Shown here piece after piece: positions 1,470-16,008 of a stretch of 16,008 nt of DNA. The notes below the pieces were generated by a model. The model made no database searches. It saw only the letters and a list, made by a program, of their open reading frames with translations, and had not been told where the DNA came from. Positions within the stretch are counted from its first letter, which is position 1. Each line of letters opens with the position of its first letter. The translations under genes and the position numbers were made by a program. Source of the stretch: Candidatus Burkholderia verschuerenii (GTDB lineage: Bacteria; Pseudomonadota; Gammaproteobacteria; Burkholderiales; Burkholderiaceae); the NCBI RefSeq assembly GCF_001189365.1, contig NZ_LFJJ01000125.1:1-16008 (forward strand), given 5' to 3'.

Positions 1470-2388
1470 TCAGGTCAGACCGTTCGCCACGCGAAACCGT
1501 CCCGGCGCGACGCCGTACAGTTCCTTGAACCGCTTGGAAAACGCCGCTTCGGATTGGTAACCGACATCCGCCGCCACATCGGCGATGCTCTTTTTGGTGT
1601 GCGTGAGCATGGTGCTGGCGAGCTGCATCCGCACATGGCCGAGCAGCGCGAGCGGCGAACTGTCGGAATGCGCGGAGAACGCCCGCATGTAGGTGGCGCA
1701 CGACATTGCCGCTTCCCTGGCGAGCAATTCCAGCCGTCCACGGTTCGGCGGGCCGCTCCAGCATCGCGATGATCGACGCGCCCAGCCACCGGTTGGCCAG
1801 CAGCGCGAGCACGCCCGCGACCGACGGCTGTTCGGCGAGCCACGCGCGCAGCACCATCGTGAAGAGCGCGGTCGATAGCGCGGTGATGATCGACGGCGCG
1901 CCGAGTTGCGCTTCGTCGGCTTCGCGACGCATCGCGCCGATCAGCGCGGCGAGATAAGGCGCCGAGGCATCCGAAAACGAGACGTGGACGACATCGGGCA
2001 GGACATCGATCAGCAAGGCGCGCGGCGCGTACAGAAAACGTCCGCAGAGCAGATCGAGTTCCGCCGCGCGGCCGTCGACGCAATTGCTTTTCAGGGTAAT
2101 CGTGCCTTGCGGCTGCTTGCGCACCGCGACCGCCTCCTCATCCGCCGATGCCGTCGCGACGCTCAGCACATGCGCATCGCCGCGCGGCAGCACGAAGATA
2201 TCGCCCGCGTTCAGCGTGAGCGTCGGCCGGCCCTTGCGCGCGACGAAGCACGTTCCGGCCAGCACGACGTGAAACACCGCTTCGCCGGCGGGCGCGTGAT
2301 CCAGTTCCAGCGGACCGCGCAACAGACAGCGCAGATCGAGCGCGCCGGAAAGATTCGCGAGTTGGAGCAGACGGTCGAGAGCGTCCAT
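1470..2388 (-). pseudogene. AraC-family transcriptional regulator (cupin N-domain + HTH), disrupted by a frameshift near 1733-1737
   Basis: The N-terminal cupin/AraC-binding domain (MDALDRLLQ...GDIFVLPRGDAHVL...) reads in the 430..2388 frame down to ...RPAEPWT. The C-terminal AraC HTH (LLAREAAMSCATYMRAFSAHSDSSPLALLGHVRMQLASTMLTHTKKSIADVAADVGYQSEAAFSKRFKELYGVAPGRF) reads in the frame of ORF 1470..1727. Removing one G from acGGctgg restores a continuous PWT-LELLAREAAMS. Confidence 0.8.
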
Positions 2389-2441: not shown

Positions 2442-3427
2442 CTATTCGGTGACCGTATCGACGTCGCTTTCCTCGCCCGATGCCGTGACGGCGCGCTTGC
2501 GCGTCAGCGACGCCGACACGCTCGACATCAGTTCGCGCAGCCACGCGACATCGGTCGGCTGCTCGGGCTGCGGCAGTGACAGCTGATAGCACTTGATGCG
2601 CGGAAACGGCACCAGCGAGTCCATCACCGCGAGCGGCAGCATCGACGCGTAATGCTGCGCGAAGCGGCGCGGCGCGGTGAAGATCAGATCGGATTGCAGC
2701 AGCACCTGCGGCACCAGCCCGAAGTAGGGGATCGTCGTCACGATGCGCCGTTCGATGCCCGCGCGCGCCAGCCCTACGTCGATCGGATGCCGCTTGCCGC
2801 CGCTGTACGGCGTCGGCGCGAGATGCGCGGCGCGCGCGTAGCGTTCGACCGTCAGCGGTTCGCGCGTGAGCGGATGATCGGCGCGCATCAGGCAGACGAA
2901 AACATCCGCGAACAAATCCTGCCGGTCGAAACGCGGTTCCGGCTTGGCTTGGTCCAGTTGGCGACCACCATCAGATCGATCTCGCCTTCGTCGAGCGCGC
3001 GTTCGTGATCGCGCATCGGATTCAGCGATTCGATTTCCAGACGCGCGTTCGGCGCGGCATCGCGGAAAGCGGCGACCAGCGTCGGCATGAAGAAACCATT
3101 GAGGTAATCCGGCGCGGCGACGCGGAACGTGCGGCGCGAACTGGCGGCGTCGAAATCGCCGTGCGGCGTCGCGACGAATTCGACTTCCCGCAAGGCGTGC
3201 TGGGCGGGCGCGAGCAGCGATTCGCCGTATTCGGTCGGCACCATGCCCTGTTTGCCGCGCACGAGAATGGGATCGCCGAGAATCTCGCGCAGCCGCCGCA
3301 GCGCCGTGCTGATCGCCGGTTGCGTCTGGTTCAGCCGCTGCGCCGTCTGCGTGACGCTGCTCTCGAGCAAAAGCGTCCGCAGCACGCGGATGAGCCAGAT
3401 ATCGAGTGAGTCGGCGGGGTCGGTCAT
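2442..3427 (-). pseudogene. LysR-family transcriptional regulator, disrupted by a 5-bp tandem duplication (frameshift) near 2941-2952
   Basis: The N-terminal HTH (MTDPADSLDIWLIRVLRTLLLESSVTQTAQRLNQTQPAISTALRRLREILGDPILVRGK...) is in the frame of ORF 2888..3484. The C-terminal substrate-binding domain (..EPRFDRQDLFADVFVCLMRADHPL...VTTIPYFGLVPQVLLQSDLIFTAPRRFA...) is in the frame of ORF 2442..3497. The junction sequence ggcttggcttgg (minus strand aagccaagcc) is a GGCTT x2 repeat. Deleting one copy gives W-T-K-P-E-P-R-F-D in frame. Confidence 0.8.
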
Positions 3428-3666
3428 ATCGGTCGAACGATGGAAAACGGATGGCCGCCGACCTTTGCCGACCTGCGCGCCCACATCTCACGGACACAAT
3501 GCGCGCGCGGACGAAGCGTGCGATCGCACGTCGTCCGTCAACAAATAGTCACACAGCCTGATGCGAGGTTAAACGCTTTCCGCCATCCGGCCCATAGCGC
3601 ACGCCCTATGCACGGCATTACCGGCGCGCGTCGGTCGGCTTGCCGCCACGTTTGCGCCACGTTGCG

Positions 3667-4311
3667 TCAGGTGAAATCGGCGTCGCGCGGGGCCATCGGC
3701 AGATTGCTGATGCGCTTGACCTCGGCGGCTTCCGGCCAGTTCGGCGAACGCGCGACGTACAGGACCATCGGCAAGGTGTCCTCGCCCCAGAAAATCTGCT
3801 CGTTGACGACGAAAGTCGGCACGCCGAACACGCCCAGCGAGACGGCGCGCTCGTTGTTGTCGCGCAGACGCGTCTTGATGTCGTCGTCCTCGATGCGCTG
3901 GACCGCATCCGGCAGGCCGACGCGCTGGCACAAATCGGCGAAACCTTCCACCGACGAGCAATCGCGCCCTTCGCGCCAGATATAGCGAAAAATTTCGCGC
4001 ACGACGTGGATATCGCCTTCCGCGAGCACGGCCAGGCGCAGCGCCTTGTTCGGATCGAACGGATGCACGGGCGGCATCTTGAACGGAATGCCGAGCTGTT
4101 CGGCGCGGAACAGCGCGTGCCGGTACGTGAAGATGCGTTTCGACGGAATCGTGGTGGCGTGCGGCTGGCCCCAGCGGTCGAGCAGCTTCATCAACTGGAT
4201 CGGCGTCAGCGCGAACGGCATGTCGGGCCATTTGTCGTGCTGTTCCAGCAGCAGATACGAGAACGGCGAGATGAAATCGAAAAAGAAATACGGTTAACCG
4301 GGGCCGCTCAT
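3667..4311 (-). pseudogene. 2-hydroxychromene-2-carboxylate isomerase / DsbA-like thioredoxin-fold protein with an in-frame TAA at codon 6
   Basis: ATG at 4311 is preceded by a strong RBS (AAGGGAGAAACCAAC-ATG). Translation is MSGPG*PYFFFDFISPFSYLLLEQHDKWPDMPFALTP...GVFGVPTFVVNEQIFWGEDTLPMV. It contains the conserved FDFxSPFSY N-terminal active-site motif and the C-terminal GVPTFVV..FWG.D motif of the HCCA-isomerase/DsbA family. TAA at 4294-4296 (minus) lies inside the palindrome CGGTTAACCG (4291-4300). Confidence 0.75.
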
Positions 4312-4507
4312 GTTGGTTTCTCCCTTCCCTGGGCCGCGTCTGGGCCTCATCGTGTGCTCGCCTGTCGCTGTTGGGTCGATGCCGGACGTTTCCATCCGCC
4401 GTTCTATGGATATTACGTGTTGCGCTGCTTACGTGCTGCCTTGTTCCGCTCCGGCCTTCGATCGGCTCGCTGCGTTTGTCACCGATCCCGCCGCCGATTC
4501 CGTCGCC

Positions 4508-5863
4508 GATATGTTCGCGTAGCACGTAAAACTGATCGGCGAAGGCGAGCGGCATCTTCATCCGGTTCACCGACGTTTCGATCGCGTCGATGCGCTCGAG
4601 CAGCGCGTCGCGCTGCGACGTGTCCGGGCCGCTGATGGCTTCGCGCTCGATCGCGATCAGCGCGCCGTACCAGCGATAGATCCGCGATTTCATCCGCCAT
4701 CGGTATAGCCCCGGCACCAGCCGCAAGCCCGGAATCAGCACGACGATCAGCGGCACCAGCACGACCAGCACGCGATCGGCGAGACTCGCGAGCCAGAACG
4801 GCAGCGTGCGGTACAGAAAGCTCTTGCCCGACTTGTAATAGCGCTCGGCGTTGTCGCTGATGCGGAATTCGTGGGCGAGCGGCGCGGGAAACTCGTTCGC
4901 GCGCTGCAGCAGGTTGGCGCGGCTGTGCACTTCGCGGGCGGCTTCGATCAGCAAGTCGGAGAGCGCCGGATGCAGGCTGTCGCGGGCGACGAGTTCGGCC
5001 GTCGGCGCGATCGTATGCACCGGATGCGGCGGCAGATTGCGGGCGAAGTCGAACGCGCCCATCGGGAAATCGATGGTCGTTAGATACGGGAAGCGGCGCG
5101 CGTAGGCATCGGCCTGCGCGAAATCCATGAAACGCACGCCGGGCGTGCGCAGCAGCTTGGCCATCGTCGGCGGTTGGGCGGAATCGCCGGTCAGGAACAC
5201 GGCGTCGGCCTTGTCGGTTTCCAGCGCATCGGCGGCGGCGTCGCCGGCGAGCGGCAGCAAAGGCGTATCGCCGCCCGGCTCGATGCCGTTCGCCTTCAGC
5301 AATTGCAGCGACAACACCCGCGTGCCGCTGCCTTCCGCGCCGATCGCGAGCCGCTTGCCCTTCAGTTCCGACAGACGCGTGACCGGCGCGCCGCGATAAA
5401 ACACCGCGAGCGGCACATACGACACGCTGCCGAGCGATTCGAGATGATCGTGCGGGGTGCCGGGCTGCGTCATCCCGCCCTGCACGAAGCCGACGTCGAC
5501 ATCGGAATGCGAATCTTCCAGACGCGTGAGGTTATCGAGCGAGCCTTGCGTCTCCAGCACGTTGAGCGTGACGCGGTTGCGCGCGAGGATCGCCTTGTAC
5601 TTCTGCGCGCTGTTCCAGAAGAAGCTGCCTTTCGGGCCGGCCGCGATGGTCAGCGTATCGGGCGGCGCGGGCTGGATCAGCCGCACGGCGACCCACAGCG
5701 CGACGATGCAGACGAGGAGAATCGGGCCGAAGGTAAGCGCGAGATCGCGCCAGGAGATCGCCACGAAGCGGGCGACGATCTTCGGCTGGGGCCGGCGCCG
5801 CTGGCCGTGTTCCGGACCGTCGGACGGACGCGGTTCCGGTTCGCTTCCTGAGGGCTGGGTCAT
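4508..5863 (-). CDS. TAXI-family TRAP transporter solute receptor, membrane-anchored; the homology-supported part is given and the 3' end/stop is not resolved
   Basis: ATG at 5863. Cytoplasmic N-tail, TM helix (LTFGPILLVCIVALWVAVRLI), periplasmic TAXI/Imp-like domain (TIAAGPKGSFFWNSAQKYKAIL...KRLAIGAEGSGTRVLSLQLLKANGIE...), and two C-terminal TM helices (LPFWLASLADRVLVVLVPLIVVLIPGL...). The frame stays open through 4508 (..FYVLREHI) and continues with no stop down to 3569, across the next gene. The native stop therefore appears lost or shifted. Confidence 0.7.
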
Positions 5864-6443
5864 CTCCCGCGAGCTTACCCGAACACGGCGCGCGGTCGCG
5901 GCCCGCCGCGCGCCATGCCGTCGATGGTACATGACTCGCGGCCGCCGGCTTGAGCGATGCGCGGCGCGTCGGGCGAGTATGACAGCCATGTGTTGAAGCG
6001 GCCGGCATTGTTGCGCGCATGCGGACCGATCGTCGCCGGATGTTAAAAGTTTTGCGCTAATGGCCGCGCTGGGCTAAATTGACGTTCGCCGCTTCATGTC
6101 AGGCAAGCATCACGAAACACAGGCATCGCGCCTGAAGCAGAATAAGAGACACAGAAACGAGCCGACGGGCGCAGCGCCCGGTCAAATCGGCCGATGTTTG
6201 TTCATTCGCCAGCCTCTCGCAGTACCGCATCGCAGCAACGGCCGTTTCGACAGTTCGTTTGCCGCCGCGTGCCGGGCCCATTGTGGCCGGCGCGCGACCG
6301 CGGTTGGCCCGCGCCATCGTGCCGGGTCGGCCGCCGCTGCGTGCGGTCCGTTTTGAAGTGCACAAGGAAAGCAAAAACCGAAAGTGCAAAGCGAGCGAAG
6401 TAGCAACTGTGCGAAGTCAACAAACGTATCAAAAGGAGAAACC

Positions 6444-7147: not shown

Positions 7148-9269
7148 ATGACAAGATTCGCGCGGATCCAGACTCTCAGGCGACAGGCGACGACCCTCGC
7201 GCTGCTCGCGACAGCAGCCACCTTCGCCGGATGCCACGGCGGTGACGACAACAGCGGCCCGCCGACCAACACCCTGCCGAGCTTCGTTTCCGGCTCGGTG
7301 AAGATTCAAAGCTACGACGGCAACACCGACGACTTGCTGACCGCCGGCCTCGGCAAGAGCGGACTGGCGTCGTCGACGGCGCCGGCCATCGCCAATGCGA
7401 CGTCGCCGACGGCGGCCGAATTGCGACGCCTCGCGATCTACTCGAACTATCGCGCGCTCGTCGACATGACGGCGAACGGCGGCTACGGGCGCTTCTGGGG
7501 GCCGAACGTCGATCTGAACGGCAACGACACGCTCGGCGAAGGCAAGATCGCCGGCAAGGAATATCTCGCCTACGCCGACGATGGCAGCGGCAATCTCAAC
7601 GTCAGTCTGATGGTACAGATTCCGTCGAGCTTCAACGCGGATCAGCCGTGCATCGTCACGGCGACGTCGTCGGGCTCGCGCGGCATTTACGGCGCGATAT
7701 CGGCGGCGGGCGAATGGGGACTCAAGCGCGGCTGCGCGGTCGCCTACACCGACAAGGGCAGCGGCAACGGCGCGCAGAATCTCACGACCAATCTCGTCAC
7801 GCTGATCGACGGCACGCTGTCCAACGCGACGCTCGCGGGCAATACGGCGATCTTCAAGGCGAACGTGAGCAGCGCGGCGCTGGCGTCGTACAACGCGAGC
7901 TTGCCGGCGCGTTACGCGTTCAAGCATGCGCATTCGCAGCAGAATCCGGAGAAGGACTGGGGCAAGAACACCTTGCAGGCGATCCAGTTCGCCTACTGGG
8001 CGCTCAACGATACCTACGGCGCGCTCAACAACGGCTCGACGCATGCCGTGCGCTACGAGAAAGGCGGCATCACGACGATCGCGGCATCGGTCAGCAACGG
8101 CGGCGGGGCATCGCTGGCGGCGGCCGAGCAGGATACCGACGGCTGGATCACGGCGGTCGTGGTCGGCGAGCCGCAGATCAACCTCAATCTGCCGTCGCAG
8201 GTGGCGGTGTACGAGGGCAACACGCCGGTCGGCTCGTTCGGGCGGCCGCTCGCCGACTACATGAGCCTCGCGAATCTGCTGCAACCGTGCGCGGCGCTGG
8301 CGCCGGCGGCGGCCAACGCGCCGAATCTGAGCGCCTTGCCGGTCGCGACGACCGCGGCGATCCGCACGGCGCGATGCGCGTCGCTGGCGCTGGGCGGCGT
8401 GATCGGCGGTGGCGATACCACGACGCAGGCCAACAACGCGCTGGCGGCGCTGCATCAGGCGGGCTACGAAGCCGATTCCGACACGCTGCACGCGCCGATG
8501 TGGGACTCGCAGGCCGTTGCCCGCCGTCGCCGTGACTTACGCCGACGCGTACATGAAGGCCAGCGTCGTCGATAACCTGTGCAACTTCAGCTTCGGCACG
8601 ACCAATCCGGCGACCGGCGCGGCGGGCGTGACGCCGCTGATTTCGCCGATGCCGACGGTCTTCGGCAACGGCAACGGCGTGCCGCCGACCAACGGCATCA
8701 ATCTGGTCTACAACGCGGGAACGAGCGGCGCGGCGGATCATCGTCTGGCGACGGCCGATGCCAGTTTCACCGGCGCGGCTTGTCTGCGCGAACTATGGAC
8801 GACCGGCAATCCGACGATGGCGGCGAGCGTCAACGCGATCCGCGTGAACGCCAATCTGCGCGGCAAGCCGGCGATCATCGTGCAGGGGCGCTCGGACGCG
8901 CTCGTGCCGATCAACCATGCGTCGCGTCCGTATCTCGGCGCGAACCGGATGGCGGAGGGCAGCAAGAGCCAGTTGTCGCTCTACGAGATCATGAACGGTC
9001 AGCACTTCGACGCGTTTCTGGGCGTGGCCGGTTTCGATACGCGCTTCATTCCGGTCCACTATTACAACCTTCAGGCGCTGAACCTGATGTGGGCGCATCT
9101 GAAGAACAACGCGCCGCTGCCGCCGTCGCAGGTGGTGCGCGCGGTCGCGCGTGGCGGCTCGCCGAGTGCCGCGCCCGCGCTGACGACGGCGAATCTGCCG
9201 GCGATCGCGGCCAGTCCGGGCGCGAATGCGATTCTGGTGAATGGCGGGGTGGTGAACGTGCCGAGGTGA
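7148..9269 (+). pseudogene. D-(-)-3-hydroxybutyrate oligomer hydrolase (PhaZ2/PhaY-type), lipoprotein; frameshift near 8515-8525
   Basis: GGAG sits 7 nt upstream of ATG 7148. Lipoprotein signal with lipobox LALLATAATFAG|C. The N-terminal 475 aa (ORF 7148..8575) match 3HB-oligomer hydrolase: LLTAGLGKSGL, ELRRLAIYSNYRALVDMTANGGYG, CIVTATSSGSRGIYGAI..EWGLKRGCAVAYTDKG, and the lipase-box-like ASVSNGGG. The C-terminal 250 aa continue in ORF 8409..9269 (PAVAVTYADAYMKASVVDNLCNFSFGTT...). The frame switch sits in caggccgttgCCCgccgtcgccgtg. Deleting one C gives ..DSQAVAAVAVTYADAY.. in frame. Confidence 0.8.
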
Positions 9270-9385: not shown

Positions 9386-10150
9386 ATGGACTCACACCCA
9401 ATCACATTTTCGTTGAGCGACGAATCGCCGGGCTACGCAATCAGTCCGGCGCGCGTCCCGTTGGGCACGCTCACCGCATTCGCGAGCGACGTGCAGGAAT
9501 TTCTCCTCGGCAGCGAGAGGTCCGTAAGTGCCGAATTGGAGGTCGCCGTGGTCAACGGATCGCTGGCGATCGAAGCGCGCAATGCCGATTCGCCAGGGCT
9601 GCTGCACGATTTAAAACGACTTGCCAGCGGATTGGATCTGACAAGGATCGATCCGAAACGTCGGTCGGTCATCGAGCGATGGCAATTGACGGCACGCGAC
9701 GCAAAATCGTGGAAACTGGAAATTAGTGGTGCGGAAAGGACGACGATTGTGGTTTCAAATGTGACGGATTTTCATTTCGCCGACCACCATCAGTTGGTTA
9801 ATGTCGAGCGTTATATTCGCGGTGAAGTGGTCAAGTTGGGCGGAGCAAGGGAGCCGACTGCCCGCATCCGTTTGGCCAACGGAAAAATGCTGACCGTGCA
9901 TGCAGAGCGCGAGACCATACGCGCCGAAACTGAAAATCACCTTTATAGACACGTGCATGTCCGAATTCGAGCAAAGCTTGATATTGAAACAGGTGAATTG
10001 AGTGACGCACGACTAGTAGAGTTCGTCGATTATTCCCCTGGGTTCGATGAACAGGCATTCGAAAAATTGACTTCGGAAGGCACGGAAGCATGGAAGGATG
10101 TAGATGACCCGGCTGAATGGGTTCGAAATTTGCGGGGAACGTCTGAGTGA
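9386..10150 (+). CDS. Hypothetical 254-aa protein with no recognisable domain; first gene of a low-GC two-gene island
   Basis: First in-frame ATG after an upstream TAA. The ORF lies in a ~48% GC region against ~65% flanks. Its stop TGA (10148-10150) overlaps the GTG start of the downstream PIN gene (GTGA). Weak RBS. Acidic C-terminus. Contains the sequence RAETENH (Rx5H). Confidence 0.6.
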   Translation: MDSHPITFSLSDESPGYAISPARVPLGTLTAFASDVQEFLLGSERSVSAELEVAVVNGSLAIEARNADSPGLLHDLKRLASGLDLTRIDPKRRSVIERWQLTARDAKSWKLEISGAERTTIVVSNVTDFHFADHHQLVNVERYIRGEVVKLGGAREPTARIRLANGKMLTVHAERETIRAETENHLYRHVHVRIRAKLDIETGELSDARLVEFVDYSPGFDEQAFEKLTSEGTEAWKDVDDPAEWVRNLRGTSE

Positions 10151-10647
10151 ATTCCGTCTTGCTTGATACCAGCTTCCTGATTTGCTTGAGTGATTCGAAT
10201 CGCTCGCATCATGCTCTTGCGAAGACTTACTTTCAGCGATTTATCGCCGAAGAAATCACGATGTATTTGTCGACCATCGTCATTAGCGAGTTCGAGGTTA
10301 AACAGCGAATATCGAGTTTGGGCCTTTCGAATTTTATCGTTCTACCGTTTAATTACGAAGACGCGTTACTGACAGCCAGGCTCTTCAACGAAATGCACGG
10401 CAATCGGCAGGAATCGGACGCGCGTGTCGCCATCAAAGACGACGCCAAGATACTCGGCCAATGCGTCTTCGCGGGTATAACGCATTTTGCGACGGACGAT
10501 GATAAATGCGTCCGGCGAATGAAAGCGGTGCGTGCAGGCGGTTTAGCCACGGACTTGCCGCATGCGATAGACCTGCACGAGCCTTTCTGGGAAGGATGGT
10601 TCACGGAAAATAATCAAGGCAATCTTCCTTTTGACTCGAATGCTTAG
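10147..10647 (+). CDS. PIN-domain (VapC-like) ribonuclease
   Basis: N-terminus VNSVLLDTSFLICL (the PIN motif LDT[NS]xLI with the first catalytic Asp). Later acidic residues occur at spacings typical of PIN (ISEFEV, ATDDDKC, D near 120). GTG start overlaps the upstream stop by 4 nt. Low GC. Confidence 0.7.
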   Translation: MNSVLLDTSFLICLSDSNRSHHALAKTYFQRFIAEEITMYLSTIVISEFEVKQRISSLGLSNFIVLPFNYEDALLTARLFNEMHGNRQESDARVAIKDDAKILGQCVFAGITHFATDDDKCVRRMKAVRAGGLATDLPHAIDLHEPFWEGWFTENNQGNLPFDSNA

Positions 10648-15043: not shown

Positions 15044-16008
15044 GCGCCTGTCTCTTCAGGTGCGCCCCACGCTTGAATGTCCTGTCTGGCGAAACCGAAA
15101 GACAGCGAGCGTGCCATATCCTGTTTTAGAAGTGACAAGGCCACACGGCGCCAGGATGGTTGCGCGCGTCGATTCTCCAGCGCGGGTGTGCCTGCGTCGG
15201 GCCAGGCGTCGAGCGGATAGCCATGGCTCGCCCACCATTGGACAAAGCGTTCGATGCGACGTGCATAGCGACCCTTTGCCCCTCTGGCATGCTGCCGAGC
15301 TGGAAATGGGCATAGGCCTTCCAGGTAGCGAAGGAAGACGGTAGTCCTGTGCCACCGCGATAGCCGAGAAACCGTTGGCGACAATAGCGCGCCGCGTAGT
15401 TGGCGCCAGCAACACGGGTCACCACCCTGAACCAGGTTTCCGGCTCGATGCGATGGAACAGGTCCAACCCTTTGCGCTGGTCATCACCGTAAGGCTGGCA
15501 GATGCGCATTTGCGAAAATGCGATGCCTGCCCAATGCATGTCATCGTACAGCCGGTTGTACGCGTGATGTTTCTCATGCGTGTAGCGCCATAGATCGCCG
15601 AATTTCCAGTCATAGATCGGGAAGAAGCTGACGGCCTGGTCCTCGCTGTCGTGACGCGAACTCCATGCGATCGGCGCGGCGCGACCGGGCGGCGTCCATG
15701 CCCGCCGTTTTCCCGGCCGCCTTGGCCGGATGGCGCGGTATCGGTTCAGGGATTCATCGGCACGAATGCCCACCAGGAACGCGGTCGGAACATCACGAGC
15801 CAACCACGCATCGAAGCCGGCCACGAATTCTTCGAACTCCATGCGGAATCGGTAAAACGGGAAGACTGAAGCATCGCGTATCAAGTTGTGTGCGTCAAGT
15901 TGTGCAGAAATCGGATGCCGGTGGTTTCAGTTGATCCTTCTGTGCGACGTGCGGCGCGAAGGGCGTAGCCCGCAGCGCCGAACGCCGCGCGGCCGCTATG
16001 CAGCAGCG
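15040..16008 (-). pseudogene. PAPS-reductase-like / DUF3440 (IbrA-like) protein, 5'-truncated by the window edge, with a frameshift near 15285-15300
   Basis: The upstream frame (ORF 15126..15884, open from ~15955) carries PAPS-reductase-like motifs (FLVGIRADESLNRYRAI, FFPIYDWKFGDLWRY, TWKAYAHFQLGSMPE). The DUF3440-type C-terminus (RYARRIERFVQWWASHGYPLDAWPDAGTPALENRRAQPSWRRVALSLLKQDMARSLSFGF) is in the frame of ORF 15040..15384. The two frames overlap across 15126-15384. The upstream frame has stops at ~15955 and ~16000, so the N-terminal P-loop part is missing or also shifted. Confidence 0.6.

Follow-up and report, generated by a model that had tools for sequence, protein, structure and literature searches.

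The isomerase locus and the stop at its sixth codon

The window, by which we mean the whole 16,008-nucleotide stretch of DNA analysed here, comes from Candidatus Burkholderia verschuerenii, an uncultured obligate leaf-nodule symbiont of Psychotria. On its minus strand lies a gene of the DsbA-like isomerase type in which a TAA follows the start codon almost immediately. The features of this gene, given in the direction of its reading, are:

4320..4325, minus strand: Shine-Dalgarno-like AGGGAG, 8 nt 5' of the ancestral ATG.
4309..4311, minus strand: ancestral ATG start of the DsbA-like isomerase gene, kept in 14 of 15 aligned loci.
4291..4300, no strand assigned: perfect 10-bp palindrome CGGTTAACCG, which contains GTTAAC and occurs once in the window.
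4294..4296, minus strand: TAA that ends the frame prematurely at codon 6, its T (4296) having replaced an ancestral C.
4255..4287, minus strand: FFFDFISPFSY, comprising strand beta-1 and, where DsbA has its CxxC, the Ser-Pro motif; the segment lies 3' of the stop, with the Ser codon TCG at 4269-4267.
4219..4221, minus strand: internal ATG (Met 31), the NCBI-annotated start of a 184-aa product and not a credible start.
3670..4293, minus strand: rest of the isomerase gene, 208 codons in a single frame free of any further stop or frameshift.
3667..3669, minus strand: native TGA stop of the isomerase gene; the C-terminus ...APRDADFT matches that of the orthologues.

Read on the minus strand, the codons between the ATG and the TAA are AGC GGC CCC GGT, which confirms the earlier note's description of a ribosome-binding site and an ATG at 4311 followed by MSGPG and a stop. 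The alignment of the start region shows GGAG or GAGA at the Shine-Dalgarno position in 15 orthologous loci, and the sole locus that lacks the conserved ATG (L042, which has ATA in its place) is itself a pseudogene. Immediately 3' of the TAA the sequence continues with CCG TAT TTC TTT TTC GAT TTC ATC TCG CCG TTC TCG TAT, which encodes PYFFFDFISPFSY, a segment that is nearly invariant across the aligned loci.

The translation of the frame beyond the stop matched the Pfam DSBA profile (PF01323) with E = 4.3e-27 and 95.6 bits against a cut-off of 25.6, covering profile positions 4-186 of 191. Protein searches recovered more than 1,000 homologues, labelled as 2-hydroxychromene-2-carboxylate (HCCA) isomerase or as members of the DsbA family, and identity to the orthologues of free-living Caballeronia is 81-83%. 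A scan of the isomerase against NCBIfam gave no equivalog model match; hence, a specific enzyme name is unsupported beyond the Pfam and PDB homology. When the PDB was searched with the sequence repaired to CAA at the stop, the best match was 3fz5 (E = 2e-11), a structural-genomics entry for a possible HCCA isomerase, which was aligned over query residues 9-192, including the region of its N-terminal FDFSS motif. Identity to this protein is low, however, and it has no established function of its own. Further matches were the isomerase NahD (2imd, E = 2e-7) and the rat mitochondrial kappa-class glutathione transferase (GST kappa, 1r4w, E = 4e-6). With NahD (PDB 2imd/2ime/2imf) and kappa GST (1r4w) the gene shares: 1) the thioredoxin fold of PF01323; 2) the N-terminal motif F-x-F-D-x-x-S-P-x-S-Y at the CxxC-equivalent position; and 3) a conserved C-terminal block of the form GVFGVPTF...FWG(E/N)D. 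The similarity to NahD is nevertheless distant, as its E-value indicates, and in the window the gene keeps company with a TAXI-like binding protein and with LysR and AraC regulators rather than with a naphthalene pathway.

In these alignments the N-terminal segment FFFDFISPFSY is paired with FYFDFLSPFSY in NahD (2imd) and FYDVLSPYSW in rat GST kappa (1r4w), which places Ser15 of the repaired protein opposite Ser16 of the latter. We take Ser16, in the GSTK1 structure, to be the residue that activates GSH at the position of the DsbA CxxC. The segment is invariant in the free-living orthologues. Both the orthologue and the PDB alignments thus place the stop upstream of the conserved motif, as had been noted before. 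Unlike NahD and kappa GST the window gene is interrupted: in place of the uninterrupted frame of the DsbA-like/HCCA-isomerase/kappa-GST family it has a TAA that parts the start codon from the motif. On sequence grounds, it is most probably a member of this family by descent only, that is, a pseudogene.

Origin of the stop codon and of the palindrome around it

The earlier note had offered three origins for the stop, namely a natural nonsense mutation, a small insertion or an engineered linker, and had proposed an alignment of orthologues. Of 46 orthologous loci retrieved, 14 were used for an alignment with the window over the start region. The codon at the stop position is CAA, CAG, CAT or AAG in all 14 orthologues, and TAA is unique to the window; CAA is found in Ca. 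B. humilis and in C. glathei. The N-terminus of the humilis gene, ATG AAC GCC CCC GGT CAA CCG TAC, is equal in length to that of the window, ATG AGC GGC CCC GGT TAA CCG TAT, and within the decamer that spans the stop the two differ by a single C>T. Since the orthologues carry sense codons at this position and the humilis context is identical, the TAA can be attributed to a single C>T transition in the Gln codon CAA. Transitions of the C>T/G>A type are also the largest class among the substitutions specific to the window, accounting for 17 of 48 over a syntenic locus of ~6.6 kb. The first of the three origins is hence supported by the step from CCC GGT CAA CCG, as seen in humilis, to the sequence of the window.

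As a side observation, the leader that precedes PYFFF is five residues long in the window and in humilis, and 10-11 residues long in most Caballeronia, which amounts to 15 or 18 nt in the alignment. The window is otherwise nearer to brachyanthoides and calva, both of which have the longer leader, and for this reason the short leader may have had two separate origins.

The stop does lie inside a perfect 10-bp palindrome (4291-4300) with an HpaI site, as the earlier note had it, though two properties that it ascribed to this element were not upheld. The palindrome is not AT-rich: it is 60% G+C, and only its TTAA core is AT-rich. Neither is the HpaI site compositionally odd, in that the window has one GTTAAC against 1.17 expected from dinucleotide-preserving shuffles, with at least one copy in 144 of 200 shuffles. 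The full 10-mer CGGTTAACCG is rare by chance, being contained in 2 of 200 shuffles. Four of its five palindromic pairs, however, are already present in humilis, where GGT (Gly) and CCG (Pro) provide them, and the fifth is completed once C>T has altered the ancestral CGGTCAACCG; the palindrome would therefore follow as an automatic by-product. We accordingly set aside compositional oddity of the HpaI site, which the shuffles rule out, the rare 10-mer being accounted for by descent from CGGTCAACCG. The palindrome with its HpaI site is, as judged from this comparison, probably an incidental result of the C>T substitution.

These observations bear directly on the two remaining origins, an engineered linker or a small insertion that brought in the HpaI site, either of which would explain why a perfect 10-bp palindrome with GTTAAC occurs just once in the window. 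No bases have been added relative to the orthologues, the leader has the length of the humilis leader, and the decamer differs from that of humilis by one nucleotide, which rejects an insertion. The same alignment speaks against a linker, as do the expected frequency of GTTAAC, the absence of flanking vector or transposon sequence, and the source itself, an uncultured obligate plant symbiont from a group of leaf symbionts that have not been cultured, and no library strain. We regard either as next to impossible.

Fate of the frame beyond the stop

Translation from the conserved ribosome-binding site and ATG would stop after five residues, and the remainder of the gene would then be an untranslated remnant, save for what might be initiated further downstream. 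The next in-frame ATG, GTG or TTG after the stop is the ATG at 4221, and an NCBI protein of 184 aa (P0002), 100% identical to the window's translation, is annotated as an ordinary CDS from this Met. That the 184-aa N-truncated protein is made and is functional finds some encouragement in the frame, which stays open for 184 codons from 4221 and is annotated as a CDS, and in one database protein (P0037, 187 aa) that begins at a similar place. However, the 24 nt upstream of the ATG, GAACAGCACGACAAATGGCCCGAC, contain no purine-rich Shine-Dalgarno sequence, and the Met is internal in all full-length orthologues. More than 20 Caballeronia species have an intact orthologue, with lengths of 213-220 aa; each of these contains PYFFFDFISPFSY and begins at the ATG homologous to 4311. 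The earlier note had allowed that orthologues might start naturally at the Met at 4221 and lack the FDFxSPFSY segment, and we found none that does. A natural start at this Met was hence rejected, given the upstream start of the intact orthologues and the want of a Shine-Dalgarno sequence before 4221. A restart there would also delete the motif, just as the earlier note had predicted: the 184-aa product would have neither strand beta-1 of the thioredoxin fold nor the Ser-Pro motif, which in the alignments falls on the active-site region of NahD and GST kappa. A functional product from Met 31 is, in our estimate, very unlikely. At most, translation from this Met would be poor, and its product, devoid of beta-1 and of the Ser-Pro active-site motif, would presumably be non-functional.

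We also considered leaky termination or programmed recoding at the TAA, by which some full-length enzyme would still be made. The base 3' of the stop is a C, and TAA-C is a comparatively weak termination context in E. coli; the downstream frame, moreover, is intact. Against such read-through stand the lack of conservation of the stop in any orthologue and the palindrome itself, which is loopless and offers no useful hairpin. To our knowledge TAA is used by no bacterial recoding system, selenocysteine being inserted at TGA and pyrrolysine at TAG. Reassignment or recoding of the stop codon is excluded by the groEL gene on the same contig, which terminates with ATG TAA, together with the absence of the stop from the orthologues. 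A scan of positions 3400-4700 for promoters and terminators found none of either, including no terminator-like stem-loop. We consider synthesis of the full-length enzyme through the TAA to be highly improbable.

How long the gene has been inactive can be gauged from its substitutions. Pairwise dN/dS is 0.25 between the window and free-living relatives, against a median of 0.14 among free-living pairs, these values being averages over long branches of a short gene and not specific to the lineage. Sixteen free-living orthologues agree with one another at 139 positions, and at these invariant sites the window has 8 substitutions, L187P among them; leaving out one free-living orthologue at a time gave 0-5 changes at such positions, and the symbionts with intact copies have 5 (humilis) and 7 (the Tri_hen symbiont). 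As a weak test, dN/dS and the changes at invariant sites together fit relaxed constraint and a fairly recent knockout. An otherwise intact frame and a dN/dS far short of 1 (0.25) leave two possibilities, a recent inactivation or an erroneous base call. On the former reading the isomerase is a young pseudogene, in which indels have not yet accumulated.

Erosion of the surrounding genes and of the isomerase in sister symbionts

The genes around the isomerase allow these two readings to be weighed. Several of them are disrupted in the same 16 kb, as is evident from comparison with free-living C. turbans, which served as the reference for the LysR, AraC and TAXI-like genes, and from profile matches for the others; one intact pair of ORFs is listed with them:

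1476-2388, minus strand: AraC-family regulator with a frameshift near 1740-1750.
2442-3497, minus strand: LysR-family regulator in two frames, split near 2945; a pseudogene.
4400-5989, minus strand: TAXI/NMT1-like binding-protein gene, upstream of the isomerase; the ancestral frame is lost after ...FYVLREHIG (~4505).
7148-9269, plus strand: 3HB-oligomer hydrolase (PF10605) in two overlapping ORFs, one matching profile positions 3-430 and the other 431-687.
9386-10647, plus strand: two overlapping ORFs, both intact, with a stop/start overlap at 10147-10150.
15126-15884, minus strand: PAPS-reductase/DUF3440-like ORF, matching PF01507 over its C-terminal third only and DUF3440 over its first half only.

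In the AraC gene, residues 1-219 and 214-305 of the C. turbans protein were matched in different frames. The frameshift in the LysR gene appears to be caused by a 5-bp tandem duplication, ACCAAGCCAAGCCGG as against ACC AAG CCG G in C. turbans, and an extra Val codon lies just 5' of the duplication. The ancestral end of the TAXI-like protein, ...EQGST-TAA, persists near 4432 in a different frame; its stop is bypassed, and therefore an 806-aa ORF (3569..5989) runs across the intergenic region and the isomerase gene. Relatives differ greatly from one another in the 3' tail of the TAXI-like gene and in the intergenic spacer. The split profile match of the 3HB-oligomer hydrolase indicates a frameshift pseudogene, its putative lesion lying near 8410-8575, and the PAPS-reductase/DUF3440 gene appears to be truncated or frameshifted at both ends. 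The genes for GroES, GroEL, a BON-domain protein and a DUF2242 protein are apparently intact. Of the intact pair at 9386-10647, one ORF encodes 254 aa with no Pfam match and the other 166 aa with a weak match to PIN (E = 7e-4, below the gathering score); they may form a toxin-antitoxin-like or accessory pair.

Beyond the window, the orthologous isomerase gene of four other leaf symbionts is also damaged, each time in a different way:

Ca. B. brachyanthoides (L019): TGG to stop (DR*GQPH), a frameshift near residue 181, and Ser to Ala in the motif (FISAFSY).
Ca. P. calva (L041): a frameshift near residue 94.
Em_con symbiont (L022), a herbarium-derived Caballeronia: a frameshift near residue 58.
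Tri_sem symbiont (L042), a herbarium-derived Caballeronia: ATG to ATA, with a frameshift and a deletion.

As the lesions differ, the isomerase appears to have been lost repeatedly among plant-restricted Caballeronia/Burkholderia; undamaged copies are present in all the free-living Caballeronia examined and, among the symbionts, in Ca. B. humilis and the Tri_hen symbiont. The TAXI, LysR and AraC neighbours in the four symbionts listed have, for their part, independent frameshifts, stops or deletions.

The possibility that the TAA is a sequencing or assembly error, with CAA as the true codon and the gene intact, has to be judged against this background. The isomerase gene contains no other lesion and the contig belongs to a draft assembly of an uncultured symbiont, both of which would suit an error. 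Yet at least five other genes on the 16-kb contig are broken by independent lesions, the isomerase is likewise disrupted in four related symbionts that were assembled separately, and single-base substitution errors are rare in consensus assemblies. A search for a second copy or assembly of the locus, by exact-protein look-up and by a metagenome DNA scan with N at the mutated base, gave no match and is uninformative on this point. We consider an erroneous base quite unlikely.

The reading that we favour, at a probability of roughly 0.86, is a natural loss-of-function nonsense mutation, in which a C>T change turned the Gln codon 6 from CAA to TAA in the reductively evolving leaf-nodule symbiont Ca. 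B. verschuerenii. The loss would have been fixed by drift under relaxed selection. One might go further and ask if the independent loss of the isomerase together with the TAXI-like, LysR and AraC genes in five of seven leaf-symbiont lineages is convergent and possibly adaptive rather than pure drift. We think this unlikely; were it the case, the lost pathway would be one that is useless or harmful in the leaf, such as the catabolism of a plant-derived aromatic or quinone compound.

The public 184-aa "2-hydroxychromene-2-carboxylate isomerase" is almost certainly the remnant of a pseudogene, devoid of the active-site motif. The criteria for pseudogenes used in studies of these symbionts are that more than 20% of the length is affected or that the alignment falls below 80% (PMC6054270; bioRxiv 10.1101/2022.09.27.509721). 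The longest ORF that remains here covers 184 of 214 codons, or 86% of the length, and for this reason the isomerase pseudogene escapes such length-based criteria and is annotated as a normal CDS. As pseudogenes with an early stop pass length filters, counts of functional genes may be slightly inflated; these filters might miss such pseudogenes systematically and lead to an overestimate of symbiont coding capacity.

Pseudogenisation of this kind is routine in the erosion of these genomes. Leaf-nodule Burkholderia have rampant null and frameshift mutations, with functional proteins coded by only 41-70% of the genome (bioRxiv 10.1101/2022.09.27.509721), and pseudogenes from such genomes have served as neutral markers (PMC6054270). 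To this well-documented process the window adds one example in which the single-base cause can be cleanly reconstructed, and it matters little beyond annotation hygiene. With the known pseudogenes of leaf symbionts (Ca. B. kirkii, humilis, brachyanthoides, calva and others; PMC6054270, bioRxiv 10.1101/2022.09.27.509721) the isomerase shares a nonsense lesion in a gene whose free-living orthologues are intact, a genome of low coding capacity, disrupted neighbours and independent erosion in sister symbionts; it differs from them in that its lesion is a single early stop unaccompanied by any indel.
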